Positions 5,540 through 12,861 of a DNA stretch of 64,000 nt are shown here, piece by piece. Origin of the DNA: Synergistaceae bacterium UBA5560 (GTDB lineage: Bacteria > Synergistota > Synergistia > Synergistales > Aminiphilaceae); assembly GCA_002425685.1 (NCBI GenBank), contig DIMS01000056.1:16511-80510 (forward strand), given 5' to 3'. Numbering within the stretch: the stretch's first letter is position 1; each line of letters opens with the position of its first letter. The position numbers and the translations under genes are program-made. The notes beneath the pieces are model-generated. The model did not search any database, was not told where the DNA came from, and worked only from the letters and a program-made list of their open reading frames with translations.

Positions 5540-7480
5540 ATGATCGGAACGCCAAACGACGGTTCCGCGCAAACGGTCTCTTCGGAAAAAAAACCGGGGC
5601 GGAGGAAGCGCTCCTTCGCCGGGCCCGTGAAGTACGTGGTCACTGCGCTCACGGTGCTTCTCGCCGTCTTCCATCTCTACACGGCGTTCTTCGGGCTCTT
5701 TCCTTCGATGCAGCAACGGAGCTTCCACATCGCCTTCGTGCTGGCGCTGATTTTTCTCCTGTATCCGGCGACCTCCCGTTCTCCCATGGAGCGGCCTTCG
5801 CCGCTCGACTGGATCTGTGCCGGCCTCGGGGCGTTCTGTTCTCTCTACGTGTTCTTCAACTACGACGCCATCGCCTCCAGGGCGGGCATGTATCTGGACT
5901 ACGAGATCTATCTGGGGATCGTGTTCACGGCGCTCGTCTTCGAGGCGGCCCGAAGAACCCTGGGTAATGTCATGCCCGTCTTCTGCAGTCTGTTCCTGCT
6001 CTTCGCCTATTTCGGAAGGTCTCTGCCGGGACCGCTCCGGCACTTCGGGCTCTCCATCCCCCGCATCGTGGAGGAACTCTACCTCACCACGGACGGACTT
6101 TTCGGCCTCGTGGCGGGCGTGTCGGCCACGTACATCTTTCTCTTCATCCTCTTCGGGGCCTTTCTGGACTCCACGAAGACGTCCACGTTCTTCAACGATT
6201 TCTCCATGGCTCTCACAGGGCACATGAAGGGCGGTCCCGCACGGATCGCCGTACTGGCCAGCGCACTCATGGGGACCATCAGCGGCAGCACCTCCGCGAA
6301 CGTGGCCACCACGGGGGCCTTCACCATTCCCCTGATGAAACGGGTGGGTTTTCAACCTCACTACGCAGGAGCGGTCGAGGCCGCGGCCTCGACGGGAGGA
6401 CAGATCATGCCTCCCGTCATGGGGGCGGCGGCGTTCATCATCGCCGATGCTCTGGGGGTTCCCTACATGAAGGTTCTCCTGGCGGCCATCGTGCCGGCAC
6501 TGCTCTACTTCTGGGGTATCTGGTGTGCGCTGGGTATCGAGGCGGACAAGCTGGGAATCAAGGGCTTGGACCGCTCCCAGCTCCCGCGGCTGCGGGACGT
6601 GCTTTTTCGGGACGGCTACAAGGCGATTCCCCTGGCGGTGATCATCTACTTTCTGCTCCGTGGCTACAATCCTCTTTACGCCGCCTGCTGGGGCATCGGT
6701 GCCGCCGTGGTCTTCAGCTACGTGCGAAAGGAGAGCCGTCTCGATCTGAAGGGGTTGGTGGCGACGCTCGAAGCGGGATCGAAAACGGCCCTTTCCGTTG
6801 CCATCGCCTGTACCATCGTGGGTGTGGTCATCGGCATGATGGGTGCCACGGGGGTGGCCCTCAAGATCGGCGACGTGGTACTCGCCGTGACGCAGGGACG
6901 GTTCTTCCCCACCCTGGTGGTCACCATGATTCTCGCGGTGATCTTCGGCATGGGCATGCCCACAACGGCGAGCTACGTCATGACCAGTGCGGTGGCCGCT
7001 CCGGCTCTCATCCTGCTTGGGTCGGAACCTCTGGACGTGCACATGTTCGTGTTCTATTTCGCCGCCCTTTCCTCCATCACGCCCCCGGTCTGCGTCGGAG
7101 CCTACACCGCGGCGGGCATTGCCGGATCGGATCCCAACAGAACGGCGTTCACGTCGGTGAAGCTGGCACTCACAGGATTTCTGATTCCCTTCATTTTCAT
7201 GTACTCCCCGGAGATTTTGCTCACCAATGTCGCCTCTCCGTGGGTCACCGGGCTCGCGGTGTTGAGCGCCTTCGCGGGGGTGTACGTTCTTGCCGTCGCC
7301 ACCGAGGGATACCTGTTCTCCCCTCTGCTTTTCGTGGAGCGCCTGTGTTGTTTTGCCGCGGCGTTGTTCCTTCTTATGCCCGGATCCGCCACCGACGTGG
7401 TTGGTGTGGCGCTTTTCGGAGGAATTTTCATGTTTCAGAAATGGCGTGCGCGAAAAGGGGGCGAAAGCGGACGAGCCTGA
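5540..7480 (+). CDS. TAXI-type TRAP transporter fused permease (DctQ-DctM fusion)
   Basis: 646-aa polytopic membrane protein typical of TAXI-TRAP fused permeases. RBS GGAGGAA. It immediately follows the TAXI receptor gene. Confidence 0.85.
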   Translation: MIGTPNDGSAQTVSSEKKPGRRKRSFAGPVKYVVTALTVLLAVFHLYTAFFGLFPSMQQRSFHIAFVLALIFLLYPATSRSPMERPSPLDWICAGLGAFCSLYVFFNYDAIASRAGMYLDYEIYLGIVFTALVFEAARRTLGNVMPVFCSLFLLFAYFGRSLPGPLRHFGLSIPRIVEELYLTTDGLFGLVAGVSATYIFLFILFGAFLDSTKTSTFFNDFSMALTGHMKGGPARIAVLASALMGTISGSTSANVATTGAFTIPLMKRVGFQPHYAGAVEAAASTGGQIMPPVMGAAAFIIADALGVPYMKVLLAAIVPALLYFWGIWCALGIEADKLGIKGLDRSQLPRLRDVLFRDGYKAIPLAVIIYFLLRGYNPLYAACWGIGAAVVFSYVRKESRLDLKGLVATLEAGSKTALSVAIACTIVGVVIGMMGATGVALKIGDVVLAVTQGRFFPTLVVTMILAVIFGMGMPTTASYVMTSAVAAPALILLGSEPLDVHMFVFYFAALSSITPPVCVGAYTAAGIAGSDPNRTAFTSVKLALTGFLIPFIFMYSPEILLTNVASPWVTGLAVLSAFAGVYVLAVATEGYLFSPLLFVERLCCFAAALFLLMPGSATDVVGVALFGGIFMFQKWRARKGGESGRA

Positions 7481-7575
7481 CCCGGGCAATTCCGCAGGTC
7501 TTTTTTCGCAAGGTTTTTCGAGGGCCGTGCCACATTCGGGACGTGCTCCATTCTCTCTGACGGAGGAGATTTCTC

Positions 7576-8466
7576 ATGAAGACATCGACGAAACTCAAGG
7601 CGCTCATTCAGCAGCGGAAGGCCCTGGTTGTTCCCGGAGCACACGATGTGATCTCCGCAAAACTCATCGAAAAGACCGGTTTCGAGGCGCTCCAGGTCAG
7701 CGGCTTCGGCCTGGCCGCCACGTATCTCGGCCTGCCCGACATGGCTTTCATCACGTTCAGCGAAGTTCAGGCGTTCACGTTCAACATCATCAAGGCCGTG
7801 AAGATTCCCGTCATGGCCGATGCCGACACCGGATACGGCAACAGCATCAACGCCATGTTCGTCACCGAGGGCTTCATTCGCATCGGCGCGGCGGGCATGA
7901 ACATCGAGGACCAGTATTTTCCCAAGCGGTGCGGCCATATGGAGGGAAAGCAGATCATCCCCACGGAGGAGATGGTTCTCAAAATCAAGGCCTGCGCGAA
8001 AGTGCGGAACGAACTCGATCCGGATTTCGTCATCAACGCCCGTACCGATGCCATCGCCGTCTCCGGCATCGACGAAGCGATCCGTCGGGGAAATGCCTAT
8101 GCGGATGCCGGAGCGGACATGATCTTCGTCGAGGCTCCCAGAACCCGGGAGGATATCGTCAAGGCCGTGAAGGAGATCAAGGCTCCCGTGAGCATCAACC
8201 TCTTCGACAATGTGGAGGGAGGCAAGACTCCCCTTATTCCCGTGGAGGAGCTGCGCGAGATGGGAGTCGCCCGGGTGAGCATTCCCGTGGGCACGACCTT
8301 CGCCGCCTTCCGCGGCGTGGAGCGCTACCTTGAGGCCATCAAGGGCGGAGCGCTCGCGCCGGGACGGACCGATCTCGTCTCCTCCTTCGCGGAGTTCAAG
8401 GAGGTTGCGGGATACACTACCTTCCGGACCCTCGAAAAGGAGTTCCTTCCCAAGTTCGTGGACTGA
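7576..8466 (+). CDS. Isocitrate lyase/PEP mutase family lyase (PrpB-like 2-methylisocitrate lyase / carboxyvinyl-carboxyphosphonate phosphorylmutase-like)
   Basis: 296 aa. The ICL/PEPM signature ...EDQYFPKRCGHMEGK... (K-R-C-G-H). RBS GGAGGAG. Cotranscribed with the TAXI-TRAP genes. Confidence 0.8.
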   Translation: MKTSTKLKALIQQRKALVVPGAHDVISAKLIEKTGFEALQVSGFGLAATYLGLPDMAFITFSEVQAFTFNIIKAVKIPVMADADTGYGNSINAMFVTEGFIRIGAAGMNIEDQYFPKRCGHMEGKQIIPTEEMVLKIKACAKVRNELDPDFVINARTDAIAVSGIDEAIRRGNAYADAGADMIFVEAPRTREDIVKAVKEIKAPVSINLFDNVEGGKTPLIPVEELREMGVARVSIPVGTTFAAFRGVERYLEAIKGGALAPGRTDLVSSFAEFKEVAGYTTFRTLEKEFLPKFVD

Positions 8467-8520
8467 GCGCAGACCGTCGCCCAGAGCGAGGGCGACACGC
8501 ATTCCCACCGGTGACGCAGA

Positions 8521-8555
8521 CGGCAGGCGGAGAGGAAGTCCCTCTCCGCCTGCCG
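8521..8555 (+). terminator. 14-bp perfect hairpin GGCAGGCGGAGAGG/CCTCTCCGCCTGCC after the lyase gene (convergent gene boundary)
   Basis: The stem was read directly. It is followed by a weak U tract (GTTTCG). It sits between convergent genes. Confidence 0.4.
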
Positions 8556-8619
8556 TTTCGCTGGCGCGCTGTTCCCTCGCTTTCCAGAGCTTCGAAATTC
8601 CAGGATCCCCCCCTTGCCG

Positions 8620-9357
8620 TCACAGGATCCATTTGCGGCGGATGTTCCGAAGGCTCGCCGCGAAGAGCCCGATGCAGAAGGCGCCGAGGATGGTGAAGTC
8701 CAGCGAATAGGACATGGTGTTGGTTCCCGAGACGGCACCATGGAGAAGATCCGCACCGTAAGTGAGGGGAAGTGCGTAGGACAGGGGGCGGAGAAAAAGG
8801 GGCAACCGCTCCAGGGGAACGAAGAGGCCGCAGAGGAAGAGCATGGGAAAACGGAAAAAGTTGGAAAAAGTCTGGGCCTCGAAGACCTCTCGCACGGCAA
8901 CGGCGATGAAGAGCCCGAAGAAGGTGGAGACCACGGCGAGAAGGAGTACTGTGGGAGCGAAGATGCCCCACGCGACGGGGGGGAGAGTGATGAAAAAGCC
9001 CGCGAGAAGCACGGGGACGAAGGCACCCGCCACGCCGAAGAGGACCGCCCCTGCTGTCTTGGCGAGCATGAGCAGCTCAAGGGAGATGGGCGCCAGAAGG
9101 AGCCGGTCGAAGGCGCGCTCTTTCTTTTCGAAGGTCACCGTCACGGCCAGCATGGAGGTGCTGCCGAAGAGAACGGACACGGCCACGACGCCGGGCAGGA
9201 CGGAGGGGAGATCCTCCATGCCCCTGCCGGAGCGCAGGAAGAACATGCCCGTCCAGGCGAGAGGAAAGAGAATTCCCCAGCTGATGTTGGGCGGTTTCAG
9301 GTAATAGGCCCGCATGTCCTTGACGAGGATGTTCCAGAAGGCGATCCACTGCTTCAT
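8620..9357 (-). CDS. ABC-2 type transporter permease
   Basis: 245 aa with six predicted TM segments, in the ABC-2 family. Overlaps the upstream ATPase gene by 4 nt. Confidence 0.75.
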   Translation of the reverse strand: MKQWIAFWNILVKDMRAYYLKPPNISWGILFPLAWTGMFFLRSGRGMEDLPSVLPGVVAVSVLFGSTSMLAVTVTFEKKERAFDRLLLAPISLELLMLAKTAGAVLFGVAGAFVPVLLAGFFITLPPVAWGIFAPTVLLLAVVSTFFGLFIAVAVREVFEAQTFSNFFRFPMLFLCGLFVPLERLPLFLRPLSYALPLTYGADLLHGAVSGTNTMSYSLDFTILGAFCIGLFAASLRNIRRKWIL

Positions 9358-10337
9358 GACGTTCCCCCCTTCGCTCCCGATTTCTCCTTTTCCCGGTGCA
9401 GTGCATCCGCCTCGATGCCCGTGATCTCCACGAAGACATCCTCAAGGGAGGGGCGGAGCCGTACCGCTTCGAGCACCTGGGCGCCGTGTTCTTCCAGAAG
9501 GCGCACGAGGGGACCGATGGCAACGGGCTGGTCCGCCTCGACGAGAAGCATGTCCTCGGCGGGACAGGAAAAGGTCAGATCGGGAAAGACTGGTGGAAGG
9601 ATGTCGACAACCTCTCCGGAAAGACCGCCGCAGCAAACCCGCAGGCGATGCCGCTTTTGGAGAGGCGTGAGGAGGTGCTCCACCGAGTCGATGCGGATGA
9701 TGCGCCCTTTTACCAGAAAGGCGATGCGGTCGCAGAGGCGCTCCGCCTCCTCGATGTAGTGGGTTGTGAGAAAAAGGGTCGTTCCGTCGCGATGGAGATC
9801 CGCCAGAATGCGACGGATCTGCCGGGCGCTGGCTACGTCGATTCCCGTGGTGGGTTCGTCGAGAAAGAGGATTTCCGGTTTGTGGAGAAGCCCCGCAGCG
9901 ATGGTGAGTTTGCGTTTCATTCCTTTGGAATAGCCTCCGAAGAGGCGATGCCCCGCCTCGGCGAGGCCGAAGATCTCCAGGAGCTCTCCGGCACGGTGTC
10001 GGCGCTCCGTCTTGCCCATGCCGTAGAGCGCACCGCAGAAGGCGAGGTTGTCGAATCCGGACAGTTCCGGATAGAGATTGCTCTCGTCGGAGACGACGCC
10101 GAGAAGGTGCTGGGCGGCCTTGGGGTTTCGTGTACAGTCGAGTCCGCCCACTCGGATCGTTCCAGCGTCAGGGCGCGCAAGCCCCGTGAGAAGGTTGATG
10201 GTGGTCGTCTTTCCCGCTCCGTTGGGGCCGAGGAAGCCGAAAAATTCACCCCGGCGGACCGAGAAGGACACGTCCGCCAGGGCCTGTACGTCTCCGAATC
10301 GCTTGCGCAGCCCTGAGGCGACCAGAACGTCCGTCAT
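9354..10337 (-). CDS. ABC transporter ATP-binding protein (ABC-2 exporter partner)
   Basis: ORF 9354-10424 trimmed to the ATG at 10337 (MTDVLVASGLRKRFGDV...). Walker [13 protein letters not shown] signature LSGGMKRKL, Walker B ILFLDEPTTG. The ATG overlaps the stop of the small upstream ORF (TGATG). Confidence 0.85.
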   Translation of the reverse strand: MTDVLVASGLRKRFGDVQALADVSFSVRRGEFFGFLGPNGAGKTTTINLLTGLARPDAGTIRVGGLDCTRNPKAAQHLLGVVSDESNLYPELSGFDNLAFCGALYGMGKTERRHRAGELLEIFGLAEAGHRLFGGYSKGMKRKLTIAAGLLHKPEILFLDEPTTGIDVASARQIRRILADLHRDGTTLFLTTHYIEEAERLCDRIAFLVKGRIIRIDSVEHLLTPLQKRHRLRVCCGGLSGEVVDILPPVFPDLTFSCPAEDMLLVEADQPVAIGPLVRLLEEHGAQVLEAVRLRPSLEDVFVEITGIEADALHREKEKSGAKGGTS

Positions 10338-10489
10338 CACGAAAGGGGCTTTTCGTCCTCGTTGCAGATACAGGGATGGGGCTTTTCGTCGCCGTGACAC
10401 TCCCGTATCCGTTCGGGCGAACATTCTCCGGGCTTGCCCTTCAGATGCTCAGGTTTTCTGCAGCAGCATTCCTTCTCACACATGGTCAT
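10337..10489 (-). CDS. Small Cys-rich metallothionein-like protein (50 aa: MTMCEKECCCRKPEHLKGKPGECSPERIRECHGDEKPHPCICNEDEKPLS)
   Basis: Not in the ORF table because it is under 60 aa. Its ATG overlaps the arsR stop (ATGA) and its stop overlaps the ABC ATPase start (TGATG). It has 8 Cys and 3 His in 50 residues, with a CCC triplet and a C-I-C motif. The internal DNA repeat GACGAAAAGCCCC encodes DEKP twice. It lies in an ArsR/SmtB-regulated operon. Confidence 0.55.
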   Translation of the reverse strand: MTMCEKECCCRKPEHLKGKPGECSPERIRECHGDEKPHPCICNEDEKPLS

Positions 10490-10848
10490 TCTCCTTTCCC
10501 GAGGGGGTTGCCCTCATCAAGTGCTTTTTGCGCCGTTGAGACGGCGATGCCGTAATGTCCCTCTTCCGGAGGAGCTGCGCCGAAAAGTTCGAGTGCCGTG
10601 CCCCGCCATGCCGCTAGCGTCTCCTCGTTGATGGCGTAATGGACGAAATAGCCGCGCTTGTCCGCCCGGACGAGCGCAGCGGCCCGAAGGATCCGCAGAT
10701 GTTGGGACACCGCCGCGGGGGTGATGGACAAAGCTCGGGCGAGGGCGTTGACGCAGAGCGGACGCTGTCTGAGAAGGGCGATCATCCGCACCCTTGTCTC
10801 CACGGAAAGCACTTTGAAAAGAGCGGCCAATTCCTCCGGAGTCGTCAT
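10486..10848 (-). CDS. ArsR/SmtB-family metalloregulatory transcriptional repressor
   Basis: 120 aa with a winged HTH (LCVNALARALSITPAAVSQHLRIL). RBS AAAGGAGG. Confidence 0.85.
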   Translation of the reverse strand: MTTPEELAALFKVLSVETRVRMIALLRQRPLCVNALARALSITPAAVSQHLRILRAAALVRADKRGYFVHYAINEETLAAWRGTALELFGAAPPEEGHYGIAVSTAQKALDEGNPLGKGE

Positions 10849-10863
10849 GGTGCCTCCTTTTTA

Positions 10864-10890
10864 TTTAAGTATCAACGCAGATACTTTAAA
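10864..10890. promoter_or_regulatory. Candidate ArsR operator: imperfect 10-6-10 palindrome TTTAAGTATC-aacgca-GATACTTTAAA
   Basis: An AT-rich inverted repeat 16-42 nt upstream of the arsR start codon. It overlaps the likely -10 region. This is the typical ArsR/SmtB autoregulatory arrangement. Confidence 0.45.
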
Positions 10891-10998
10891 TCTCCTCTCT
10901 TCATCTGTCAAGGAGGGTGATGAGGTTCGCATTCGCGCTCTTCCCAATTGAAGGACGCACAGAAGCCTTTTTTTACGAACGAACCGAGAGAGTCAAGC

Positions 10999-11036
10999 AA
11001 AAAGGCCCCGAGGCCGGAAAGCCCGGACTCGGAGCC
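10999..11036 (-). terminator. Putative intrinsic terminator for the NapH-like gene (imperfect 10-bp stem, loop AAAG, then UUUUUG on the minus strand)
   Basis: GGCTCCGAGTCCGGGC-ttt-CCGGCCTCGGGGCC followed by TTTTTGC on the minus strand. It lies 240 nt after the stop codon. Confidence 0.4.
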
Positions 11037-11272
11037 TGCGTTCATCTCCATGTGGACACGTAAAATTTCTTGAGCGCTTCGGAAGACCAAGGATAGATCG
11101 ATAACACACAAGATCTCTCGCACAAGTGCGAGGAACGGATCAAAGGGACTTGATCGTCCCCCCTCATTTTTTGCATGTCATGCCTTCCGAGAGAAGAAGG
11201 AAGAAGGTGCGTCTCATCGTTGCCGGACGAACAACATACGGCTGCGGTCTGGCTCGGCTCGAATTCCGGCGT

Positions 11273-12682
11273 TCATCGCTTCAGCAGCCGCGACACGGCG
11301 TCCCGGATCTCCTGAACTTCCTTTCCAGATTCCACCGCCAACTCCTTGAGCGGACGGTCGAGGGAGGATTCTTGCGGCCAGTGTGCCTCGGCGAGGATGG
11401 CTGCGGGGTCGAGTCCGAAGGTGGACCCTACGTCGAGAAGGGTCATGGAACCCCGGATGCTGTCAGGGCTTGACGGAGGAGTGGAGGTACTTCCGGGTTG
11501 TCCCGTAGTTTGTCCCTGCGAGGTTTCCCTGGACTCCAGGGAGGTGAAATAGGCGACGAGAGCATTCTTGACGGCCTCGTCGTTCACGCCGTCGAGTTTT
11601 TTCATGGACACGTCCCTGGGAGTGTCGTCGGGAAGTTCCGCTAGGGCGAGAACCTGTTCCACCGGCAGTCCGACGGTTTTTGCCGCCTGCTCGAAGGTCA
11701 TCCAGCCGAAGACGCCCTCCACGGAACGGACCCCCGTGAGCGTACCCTCCGGCGGCGCGTAGAAGGTCGCCCAGTGTCCCGTCACTTTTGCGGTGCCGTA
11801 GGCACCAAAGAAAAAGAAAAGCCCCACGAGTCCCACCGTCAGGGTGGAAAAACGGCAGGGCGGTTTTTCCGGCTTTCCGGGAGCGGCGAATTCCAGCGTG
11901 CGCGGAACAGGACAGGCGGCGATGCAGCGCCCGCAGGCAATGCATTCGCTGCTCACAGTTCGGACCGTTGTCATCGGATCGAGACGCACCGGGCAGGTCC
12001 ACGTGCAGGCGGCGCAGGAGATGCATGTCGTCTCGTTCCGCTGGATCTTGGCGAGTCCGAGTTTCTGGAGCGGAGCCAGGAGTGCGCCGAGGGGACAGAG
12101 GTAGCGGCACCAGAAACGCTCGATCCAAAGAGAGGCGAGGAGCACGGCTCCGAAGAGGACTCCGTAGGCCCAGGGGCGCTCGAGAACACCCGCCCACCCT
12201 TCCGTGGCATGCATGGCCGCCACCCAGGGATCGACATCGCGCCAGGCGAGCGATCCTGTGCGCCAGGCAAGTCCCACCACGACCGCGAGAACAAGGTATT
12301 TCAGCGCACGCAGTGAACGATCCACTGCCTCGGGAAGTTCCCTGCGCCGGATGCCCAGCCTTCTTCCCAGGGTCGCGCTCCACTCTCCCAGGGTGCCGAG
12401 GGGGCAGATCCAGCCGCAGAAGACACGCCCCACGAGAAGTCCTCCCAGCACGATTCCAGCGAGGAGGACCAAGGTGCTCGGGGCAGTGCGGCGGAGCCAG
12501 TCTCCGGAGGTAAAAACGCTGTACAGGCTCTCGACGAAGCCGAGGGGGCAATAGGCATCCACACTCCCCACTCCCTTGGGGCCACCCCCTAGAACCTGAT
12601 GACGCCATCCAATCCACATGAGAAAGGCGAAAAAGCTCCCCTGTACGGCGTAGCGAAGCCATTGGGTCCGTTTCTCCGTCAT
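11273..12682 (-). CDS. NapH/NosR-like membrane polyferredoxin (CX3CP motifs plus two 4Fe-4S ferredoxin motifs) with a novel duplicated C-terminal domain
   Basis: ORF 11273-12763 trimmed to the ATG at 12682 after GAGGAGGAAAACGACA. Motifs CGWICPLG and CRYLCPLG (CX3CP) plus CISCAACTWTCP and CIACGRCIAACP. The C-terminal 170 aa hold two about 45-aa repeats (GLPVEQVLALAELP... / GLDPAAILAEAHWP...) separated by a Ser/Thr/Pro linker. Confidence 0.75.
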   Translation of the reverse strand: MTEKRTQWLRYAVQGSFFAFLMWIGWRHQVLGGGPKGVGSVDAYCPLGFVESLYSVFTSGDWLRRTAPSTLVLLAGIVLGGLLVGRVFCGWICPLGTLGEWSATLGRRLGIRRRELPEAVDRSLRALKYLVLAVVVGLAWRTGSLAWRDVDPWVAAMHATEGWAGVLERPWAYGVLFGAVLLASLWIERFWCRYLCPLGALLAPLQKLGLAKIQRNETTCISCAACTWTCPVRLDPMTTVRTVSSECIACGRCIAACPVPRTLEFAAPGKPEKPPCRFSTLTVGLVGLFFFFGAYGTAKVTGHWATFYAPPEGTLTGVRSVEGVFGWMTFEQAAKTVGLPVEQVLALAELPDDTPRDVSMKKLDGVNDEAVKNALVAYFTSLESRETSQGQTTGQPGSTSTPPSSPDSIRGSMTLLDVGSTFGLDPAAILAEAHWPQESSLDRPLKELAVESGKEVQEIRDAVSRLLKR

Positions 12683-12861
12683 TGTCGTTTTCCTCCTCTC
12701 AATGTTTCTTCTTATCAGCACTATGCTATTTCGGAGGTAATACATGCCTTTGTTTTTAAGCATACTCCTCTGGGGAACGCGAGAACAGGGGGAAACACTC
12801 TAATTCCGTGTTACAATAAATGATATTCCATATCATTTGACGTGCGGCGAGGTGACGCTCC

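Follow-up and report, generated by a model that had tools for sequence, protein, structure and literature searches.

A Cys/His mini-protein gene between arsR and an ABC-2 exporter as a candidate detachable partner of ArsR-family repressors

The window analysed here, a stretch of 64,000 nucleotides (nt) from contig DIMS01000056.1 of Synergistaceae bacterium UBA5560, carries a compact operon in which a gene for a small Cys/His-rich protein lies between arsR, encoding an ArsR/SmtB-family repressor, and the ATPase and permease genes of an ATP-binding cassette type 2 (ABC-2) exporter (all coordinates are those of the window, and peptide residue numbers follow a 50-residue numbering). Our comparative analysis suggests, with about even credence, that this 48-residue protein is a free-standing module that would provide the ligand-binding (sensor) part in trans to one ArsR subfamily. 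The module is taken to work with ArsR because the two domains occur fused, their gene order is invariant, the genes are translationally coupled and the helix-turn-helix (HTH) protein lacks a complete sensing site of its own. A regulatory sensor role, rather than metal storage, is favored because the fusion with ArsR is recurrent.

The existence of the small gene had been proposed in a first-pass annotation of this DNA, and most of that description holds. The uninterrupted 50-codon open reading frame (ORF) at 10337..10489 on the minus strand, including its translation, its 8 Cys and 3 His and its CCC and C-I-C motifs, is exactly as quoted there. Both overlaps are also present, namely ATGA, where the arsR stop codon (TGA, 10488-10486) overlaps the first ATG of the ORF (10489-10487), and TGATG, where the peptide stop codon (TGA, 10339-10337) overlaps the ATPase start (ATG, 10337-10335); the linkage of the peptide gene to ArsR and the ABC-2 exporter in one compact operon likewise stands. 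The ORF of 50 codons is real, but its likely start is the second ATG (10483), giving a 48-residue product, since the Shine-Dalgarno (SD) sequence AAGGAG (10496-10491) is spaced 7 nt from this codon and just 1 nt from the first ATG, the N-termini of the family proteins start with MC, and public gene calls are 48 residues long. Nor has the gene been missed by annotation everywhere, as had been supposed: a 96%-identical 48-residue protein is already held by NCBI and JGI as 'hypothetical protein [Aminiphilus sp.]'. It is protein conservation, and not ORF length, that places the gene beyond chance. The DNA repeat described as tandem is present, but as a 25-nt direct repeat at 33-nt spacing. By its sequence, it represents an 11-codon local duplication that created the lineage-specific tail ...ICNEDEKPLS, not present in other family members; the extra Cys residues of the window protein (CCC, C-I-C) are variable in the family or lineage-specific.

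An initial homology search returned 7 relatives of the peptide. Profile searches gave 314 clusters at 50% identity among 1.84 billion representative proteins, and 1,617 protein clusters in a 5.8-billion-protein database; among the 120 clusters listed of these 1,617, none had a Pfam domain and the few named ones were called 'hypothetical protein'. The conserved part is a 31-residue module, which occurs singly or as a tandem pair and is usually preceded by an 'MC..C(C)' cap. Extraction yielded 130 module copies, of which 103 distinct ones are exactly 31 residues long, using a pattern that demanded the Cys and His positions and so imposed the ligand register on these copies; P4, L7, P11, Q18 and G24 are conserved to at least 90% in the 103 distinct modules. 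In whole-protein alignments (window numbering), C10, C23 and C31 are invariant, with conservation of at least 90% for H32, G33, H38 and C40. The conserved ligand-type residues of the module are 4 Cys and 2 His only.

Neither Pfam nor NCBIfam gave a family for the module, whether in the peptide, in 75 relatives or in five proteins with a fused or doubled module, and a profile search with the module against PDB sequences gave 0 matches at E≤10. Weak matches of five family members to the eukaryotic RGM_N Cys-rich domain (best E 3e-5) were taken as compositional. Literature searches combining ArsR with cysteine-rich and ABC-2, or ArsR with internal translation, found nothing describing an ArsR-module system, and a full-text search with six module motif strings returned 0 papers. 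As far as these searches reach, the family is without a described function and the module without a Pfam, NCBIfam or PDB counterpart. AlphaFold2 modeled the window peptide alone with a predicted local distance difference test (pLDDT) score of 59; in the natural fusion P0274 the ArsR part scored >90 and the module 57-69. Such low module values would fit a fold dependent on a metal or cofactor, without being evidence for one. One family member of 124 residues, P0089, has a His/Cys-rich N-terminal stretch (...CHDHHGHHRVNHCCC...CGCHHHGH...), followed by an apparent coiled coil and then the module; this stretch is a hint towards metal binding.

A genome scan covering one representative genome per species (GTDB) confirmed the module at 318 places. 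The best 79 of these, used here as the locus set, were drawn from Desulfobacterota, Bacillota, Chloroflexota, Planctomycetota, Armatimonadota, Verrucomicrobiota, Spirochaetota and Ignavibacteria, nearly all of them as metagenome-assembled genomes (MAGs) of samples from sediment, groundwater and similar sources. In 33/79 loci the module forms the C-terminus of an orthologue of the window ArsR (the fusions being about 152-196 residues long where the start is clear), and in 19/79 its gene comes next after arsR in the same orientation, in many cases with an overlap. In 4/79 an ArsR is found within about 3.5 kb of the module, and in another 4/79 an ABC-2 permease homologue is nearby with no ArsR detected; 14/79, mostly from Chloroflexota, are orphans with neither ArsR nor ABC pair nearby. 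The remaining 5/79 had too little context, leaving 74 loci classifiable for their ArsR and ABC neighbors. At least 72 further clusters of fused proteins were recovered, every one named only 'ArsR family regulator'.

The exporter genes are part of the same conserved arrangement and are orthologous between loci. Of the 65 loci with at least 2.5 kb of downstream sequence, 35 have ATPase and permease homologues after the module in the same orientation (17/28 fused and 18/37 split). The fetched loci contain 41 permease homologues, nearly all downstream of the module and none seen upstream of it, with a median identity of 62% to the window permease. A complete cassette from Ignavibacteriaceae (L074) is 69% identical to the window in ArsR, 69% in the peptide, 64% in the ATPase and 70% in the permease. 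The ArsR-peptide-ABC synteny, suggested in the first-pass annotation as a check on the gene, is thereby present across loci. Loci L001-L004 share 98-99.9% identity with the window, too much for any conclusion about selection.

Fused and split forms also occur among close relatives. A search with the fusion P0125 returned mainly fusions of 147-155 residues together with 120-residue ArsRs, the latter mostly 58-78% identical over the ArsR part; organism-named matches came from Desulfobacca, Desulfobaccales or related Thermodesulfobacteriota. Within one lineage we observed three locus states with the same gene order (compared over L087:4280-4400, L089:4280-4520 and L090:2380-2630), namely fused (L090, L091), frameshift-overlapping (L089) and module-deleted (L087). 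In L089, a 1-nt indel just before the module ATG results in a 120-residue ArsR overlapping a 44-residue module ORF. The frame of this ArsR continues, out of register with the module, across the beginning of the module gene and ends with ...PCVPVKPNAKNRKS, a tail common to at least 25 clusters returned by the P0125 search, and the 44-residue module has an ATG of its own preceded by GGAGG. In L087 the module is reduced to a remnant, MCNCKTEYQQPEELKGK, abutting the ATPase start, with ArsR and the ABC pair kept.

Most fusions also retain a ribosome-binding site in front of the module. An SD core of at least 5 nt stands 6-9 nt before the internal ATG of the MC cap in 26/33 fusions (e.g. L026:4647-5111 and L045:4644-5120; the 33 fused loci span L008-L084), compared with 19/743 of the other internal ATGs of those loci (Fisher p = 4e-30). 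This internal SD, mostly AAGGAGG or AAGGAGGT, is read in two codon registers, as 'ERR' in 15 loci and as 'KEG', 'KEV' or similar in 11, which places the constraint on the nucleotides and not on the protein. The internal Met itself is conserved to at least 90% in the 72 fusions. Judging from these signals, the fused genes probably also yield a free module from the internal start; such a possible nested gene is an unusual feature.

The repressor partner is readily classified. The window ArsR scores 49.7 bits against HTH_5 (PF01022, cut-off 22) and 79.7 bits against NF033788 (cut-off 55), with a weak HTH-level resemblance to the SufR model (TIGR02702, E about 0.002-0.015), and its gene has its own SD, AAGGAGG (10859-10853). 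By these scores the regulator is a bona fide ArsR-family protein. It shares 53% identity with the ArsR part of the fusion P0125, and split-form ArsRs of other phyla align with it along its length. It has one Cys in helix alpha3 (Cys31, in LCVNAL); on reading its sequence, two of the three Cys of the classical As(III) site (the second and the third) were absent and no Asp/His/His/Glu motif was seen in alpha5, i.e. neither the alpha3 CVC-type nor the alpha5 canonical sensing site is present. The same single Cys characterizes the relatives. In the 72 fused ones, C32 is the sole invariant Cys of the HTH part, and the alpha3 Cys is found in every split-form ArsR whose sequence covers that region. 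The complete set of conserved ligand-type residues in the 72 fusions comprises C32 and the cap Cys after the internal Met (both invariant), a linker Cys (at least 90%) and the Cys4 and His2 of the module. The module could supply the ligands that are absent from ArsR's own sensing site, since the window ArsR keeps one alpha3 Cys and no other canonical site was read in it.

The imperfect 10-6-10 palindrome described upstream of arsR in the first-pass annotation is real. Its 10-nt arms (10864-10873 and 10880-10889) are 90% complementary with a 6-nt spacer, it lies 16-41 nt before the arsR ATG, and it also overlaps the -10 hexamer of a predicted promoter. This promoter (TTGACA-17-TAAAGT, 10/12 matches) is the sole sigma70-like match in 8300-11400, with 0.3 expected from shuffles. 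The window operator 24-mer, TAAAGTATCTGCGTTGATACTTAA, has near-identical counterparts upstream of arsR in two other split loci, TAAAGTATCTGCGATAATACTTAA in L074 (Ignavibacteriaceae) and TAAAGTACCTGCATAAATACTTAA in L005. A shorter-spaced pattern, T[TA]AAG-N6-CTT[TA]A, is located 0-34 nt before arsR in 13/53 loci, compared with a mean of 0.07 in composition-preserving shuffles, and most of its 18 occurrences anywhere in those loci are these upstream-of-arsR sites. The ArsR-family feature of an inverted repeat at the repressor's own promoter is thus found in the sequence. There is good evidence that the palindrome is a putative autoregulatory operator, because this non-coding element is conserved across phyla at the arsR promoter. 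Regulation by a riboswitch or leader peptide is unlikely, since the predicted 5' untranslated region is only about 28 nt. The transcription unit is probably bounded at its 5' side by a terminator-like hairpin upstream of the promoter (the consensus scan found 6 such sites in the region against 3.1 expected).

The two genes following the module, which overlap each other by 4 nt, encode an ABC_tran ATPase and an ABC2_membrane permease, the adjacent pair that makes up a DrrAB-like exporter. The best NCBIfam subfamily models score below their cut-offs (286.8 vs 312 for drrA, 53.6 vs 223 for drrB), so that no named subfamily applies and the system is, on these scores, a generic ABC-2 exporter; a PDB search with the permease gave no match. 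Additional genes around the cassettes vary among the loci. Where the ABC pair is absent, ArsP_1 (PF03773) permeases are found downstream, and occasionally MFS_MOT1 or chromate transporters. The ArsP_1 partner is usually encoded by two adjacent ORFs of about 160-190 residues (L007, L024, L030, L036, L065); a single-gene ArsP_1 permease has about 300-350 residues. Between the module and the ATPase, S-adenosylmethionine (SAM)-dependent methyltransferases are inserted in 5 loci and DsrE-like proteins in 3. The methyltransferases rank ArsM-like and DVU_1556-like models top, all far below every curated cut-off, and therefore no substrate is named from them. Downstream of the permease we found extracytoplasmic function (ECF) sigma factors (7 loci), zf-HC2 anti-sigma factors (5) and PF13801 'heavy-metal resistance' proteins (3).

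The recurrent neighbors (ArsP_1, SAM methyltransferases, DsrE, ECF sigma with zf-HC2, and PF13801) have a metal or metalloid flavor, and the Cys/His chemistry of the module together with these neighbors would favor a soft metal or metalloid as the ligand, an iron-sulfur (Fe-S) or redox signal being the minority alternative. The 85 upstream neighbors of arsR show no dominant theme. In Desulfobacterota loci (L025, L045, L058, L051 and others) the exporter is followed by a trio of ECF sigma, zf-HC2 (RsrA-like) and PF13801/LTXXQ genes, which may together form a larger stress island. The features identified in the window are compiled in the table below.

Table. Features of the arsR-module-exporter operon and its promoter region in the window.
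Feature	Position	Strand	Remarks
ABC-2 type permease	8620..9357	-	PF01061, 94 bits
ABC transporter ATP-binding protein (DrrA-like)	9354..10337	-	PF00005, 102 bits
Small Cys/His protein gene	10337..10483	-	48 residues from the second ATG; alternative first ATG at 10489 gives 50 residues
Direct repeat, 25 nt x2	10338-10362 and 10371-10395		80% identical, 33-nt spacing
Conserved module CRKPEHLKGKPGECSPERIRECHGDEKPHPC	10370..10462	-	register C1-x12-C14-x7-C22-H23-x5-H29-x-C31
arsR, 120-residue ArsR/SmtB-family repressor	10486..10848	-	PF01022 and NF033788
Shine-Dalgarno AAGGAG of the peptide gene	10491..10496	-	within the arsR 3' end; sequence read directly
Operator-like inverted repeat TTAAAGTATC-tgcgtt-GATACTTAAA	10864..10889		over the -10 hexamer
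Sigma70-like promoter	10883..10911	-	-35 TTGACA 10911-10906, 17-nt spacer, -10 TAAAGT 10888-10883
Terminator-like hairpin followed by a T run	11003..11024	-	between the NapH-like gene and the arsR promoter; consensus scan only

Upstream of the operon, the gene at 11273-12763 (minus strand) encodes a 496-residue NapH/MauN-like membrane polyferredoxin with two Fer4_5 domains and a 4Fe-4S dicluster domain; its C-terminal extension of ~200 residues has no family match, and the gene also adjoins the operon in L001 and L003. The region converging on the operon end (5540-8466, plus strand) holds a 646-residue DctM-type tripartite ATP-independent periplasmic (TRAP) permease, whose Pfam family was assigned from the L001 counterpart, and a 296-residue protein of the phosphoenolpyruvate mutase/isocitrate lyase family, with no link to the operon seen. 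Elsewhere in the locus set, some genomes have paired module genes about 0.4-1 kb apart. In L075 these are two nearly identical orphan module genes (L075:4974-5108 and 6011-6145), and in L031 a double-module gene (L031:4866-5105) is followed by an ORF with a more divergent module (L031:5507-5935).

In the mechanism that we propose, ArsR would bind the inverted repeat over the -10 hexamer and repress the operon of arsR, module, ABC ATPase and ABC-2 permease. The module, either alone or together with the alpha3 Cys of ArsR, would capture a thiophilic signal, for which a soft metal or metalloid and possibly an Fe-S or redox signal are candidates; ligand capture would then relieve repression, and the exporter would be made. 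An extended version of this proposal, which we offer tentatively, is a two-part metalloregulator not described before, in which the Cys4His2 mini-protein serves as a separable sensor subunit, anti-repressor or ligand buffer of a dedicated ArsR clade. The mini-protein would toggle in evolution between fused, overlapping and separate forms and be nested in the fused genes, so that the balance between free and tethered module would determine the threshold at which the conserved ABC-2 exporter, seen as a detoxification system widespread in bacteria of sediment-type environments, responds.

Several observations weigh against the proposed sensor role. The module is found without a nearby ArsR or ABC pair in 14 of the 74 loci with enough context, and because of these loci it can be taken to work without an adjacent ArsR. 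The L087 lineage lost the module and retained ArsR and the ABC pair. A free module that may be produced from the internal SD and ATG of the fusions would suit a chaperone or buffer as well as a sensor. Tandem double modules are frequent in the stand-alone members that score highest, and they turn up repeatedly in split loci. With the low AlphaFold confidence (59 alone, 57-69 fused), neither a docking mode nor a metal site is supported structurally. Moreover, ABC-2 systems are not the usual exporters of metal cations. The orphans, double modules, free module and module loss would be equally compatible with a chaperone or buffer, and in this respect they argue against a pure sensor. The two roles are not mutually exclusive, and metal binding or chaperoning by the module is possible alongside sensing.

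The strongest rival to a sensor supplied in trans, possible yet in our estimate rather unlikely, is that the module is an autonomous metal buffer (metallothionein-like) or a CopZ-like chaperone, co-expressed with the exporter, which sequesters a thiophilic metal or metalloid or delivers it to the ABC-2 system or to ArsR, with ArsR sensing alone. A protein that did nothing but store metal would hardly be expected to become covalently fused with a repressor time and again, even if the orphan modules at 14 loci without a nearby ArsR, the common double modules and the pool of free module expected from the internal SD and ATG of the fusions all suit an autonomous protein. The 8 Cys and 3 His of the window peptide in 48-50 residues speak for this rival, and the His/Cys-rich stretch of P0089 and the occurrence of PF13801 heavy-metal-resistance proteins and metal or oxyanion transporters among the neighbors point the same way. 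On the other hand, no match to any metallothionein or chaperone family was found, and these ArsRs, which would have to sense alone, are without a complete canonical sensing site. The metallothionein identity suggested in the first-pass annotation fares poorly in particular. Pfam, including its bacterial metallothionein model, gave no match at E≤1 for the peptide or its 75 relatives, and the 103 module copies do not display the metallothionein signature, in which conserved Cys are dense and other conserved residues few: of Cys and His, just 4 and 2 are conserved, and P4, L7, P11, Q18 and G24 are equally so, which suggests a defined fold or interface and not a cluster-forming metallothionein. 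The comparison with SmtB/SmtA modules does not hold for gene layout either, as the arsR-peptide pair of the window is co-directional and coupled, not divergent. Overall, the role of a detachable repressor partner is better supported than that of a metallothionein and is the best-supported reading of the sequence data, with metal binding being plausible.

We consider it quite unlikely that the module binds an oxygen-labile Fe-S cluster and forms with ArsR a sensor of redox state, O2 or iron in the manner of SufR or WhiB. SufR provides a precedent as a winged-helix repressor with a C-terminal Cys-ligated cluster. The extracted modules have four invariant Cys (in a register imposed by the pattern), but they also have two invariant His, and these, like the CH/HxC arrangement, are seen more typically in Zn- or Cu-type sites. 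Sediment, groundwater and similar sources yielded the MAGs that make up almost all of the genome matches, and these belong to lineages that we take to be largely anaerobic. In a few loci (L090, L091, L006) Fe-superoxide dismutase or Mn-catalase genes lie divergently upstream, and RsrA-like zinc anti-sigma factors are found downstream in several; the 85 upstream neighbors, however, show no recurrent set of Fe-S biogenesis or oxidative-stress genes, and the exporter output, the optional methyltransferases and the ArsP-type permeases fit detoxification better.

The alternative offered in the first-pass annotation, a Cys-rich secreted or modified peptide (i.e. a ribosomally synthesized and post-translationally modified peptide, or RiPP, or a bacteriocin-like one) exported by the adjacent ABC-2 transporter, is very improbable. 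The position of a small Cys-rich ORF directly upstream of an ABC exporter invites it, but in 33/79 (about 40%) of the genome loci the module forms one protein with a cytoplasmic DNA-binding domain. The window peptide is very hydrophilic with no signal or leader sequence seen on reading, and conservation is uniform over the 31 residues with no split into leader and core. No conserved modification enzyme occurs among the neighbors, and the transporter has no match to a peptidase domain that would mark a dedicated peptide exporter. The fusion with ArsR, the uniform conservation and the lack of a modification enzyme or peptidase domain effectively exclude this reading. Finally, a chance ORF in GC-rich DNA without a product, for which nothing speaks except its short length, has a negligible probability and is refuted by the conservation of its motif in 1,617 protein clusters and 318 genome matches across many phyla, besides the proper SD at the right spacing and the conserved position and gene order.

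The repeated evolution of sensing sites on one scaffold has its textbook example in the ArsR/SmtB repressors, and to our knowledge every characterized site of this kind lies inside the repressor chain. In some members it resides in a terminal extension (A. ferrooxidans ArsR with its C-terminal Cys, CmtR, NmtR/KmtR). The system described here shares with them a winged-helix repressor, an inverted-repeat operator over the promoter with predicted autoregulation, predicted control of efflux, and Cys/His ligands (here candidate ligands) outside the core fold. Unlike in these regulators, the Cys/His part is a discrete 31-residue module without a Pfam or NCBIfam model, which can be fused, overlapping or encoded by a separate gene, with the fusions keeping an SD and ATG inside the gene; as output there is an ABC-2 exporter and not ArsB/Acr3, a P-type ATPase or a cation diffusion facilitator (CDF) transporter.

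In the SmtB-SmtA pair of Synechococcus, the repressor and metallothionein genes are divergently transcribed. An ArsR-family repressor is similarly linked here to a small Cys/His-rich protein, whose 8 Cys and 3 His resemble the SmtA counts. In contrast to SmtA, there is no sequence relationship (Pfam, E≤1) and just 4 Cys and 2 His are conserved in the module family; the genes are co-directional and coupled, the module is often fused to the repressor, and the exporter belongs to the same unit. A SufR-like trait of the ArsR-module fusions is the C-terminal Cys-rich region of an HTH repressor (a [4Fe-4S] Cys motif in SufR), but the motif and its spacing differ, suf genes are not nearby and the module can be a separate polypeptide.

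Beside these two ArsR/SmtB precedents, the operon logic resembles especially that of CopY-CopZ-CopA-CopB in Enterococcus hirae, which comprises a repressor, a metallochaperone and exporters, and in which CopZ delivers metal to CopY. The order from repressor through a small (here putative) metal-binding protein to export machinery is the same, and sensing in trans of a similar kind is what we propose for the module. The protein families are unrelated to those of the window: CopY is a BlaI/MecI-type winged helix, CopZ has the ferredoxin-like MxCxxC fold, and the exporters are P-type ATPases, in place of ArsR, the module and an ABC-2 system. We know of no CopZ-CopY fusion.

If the proposed role is correct, a separate, translationally coupled sensing module would represent a new architectural class of ArsR/SmtB regulators, the more so with an internal start within the fused genes, which would also make these genes good test cases for mapping of translation initiation sites. 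It would also provide a function for >1,600 clusters of 'hypothetical' mini-proteins from many phyla, many of them easily missed by gene callers. The median identity of 62% to the window permease across phyla implies a specific substrate of the exporter, and this substrate could bear on metal or metalloid cycling in sediments, e.g. of arsenic, antimony, mercury or thiolated and methylated species.

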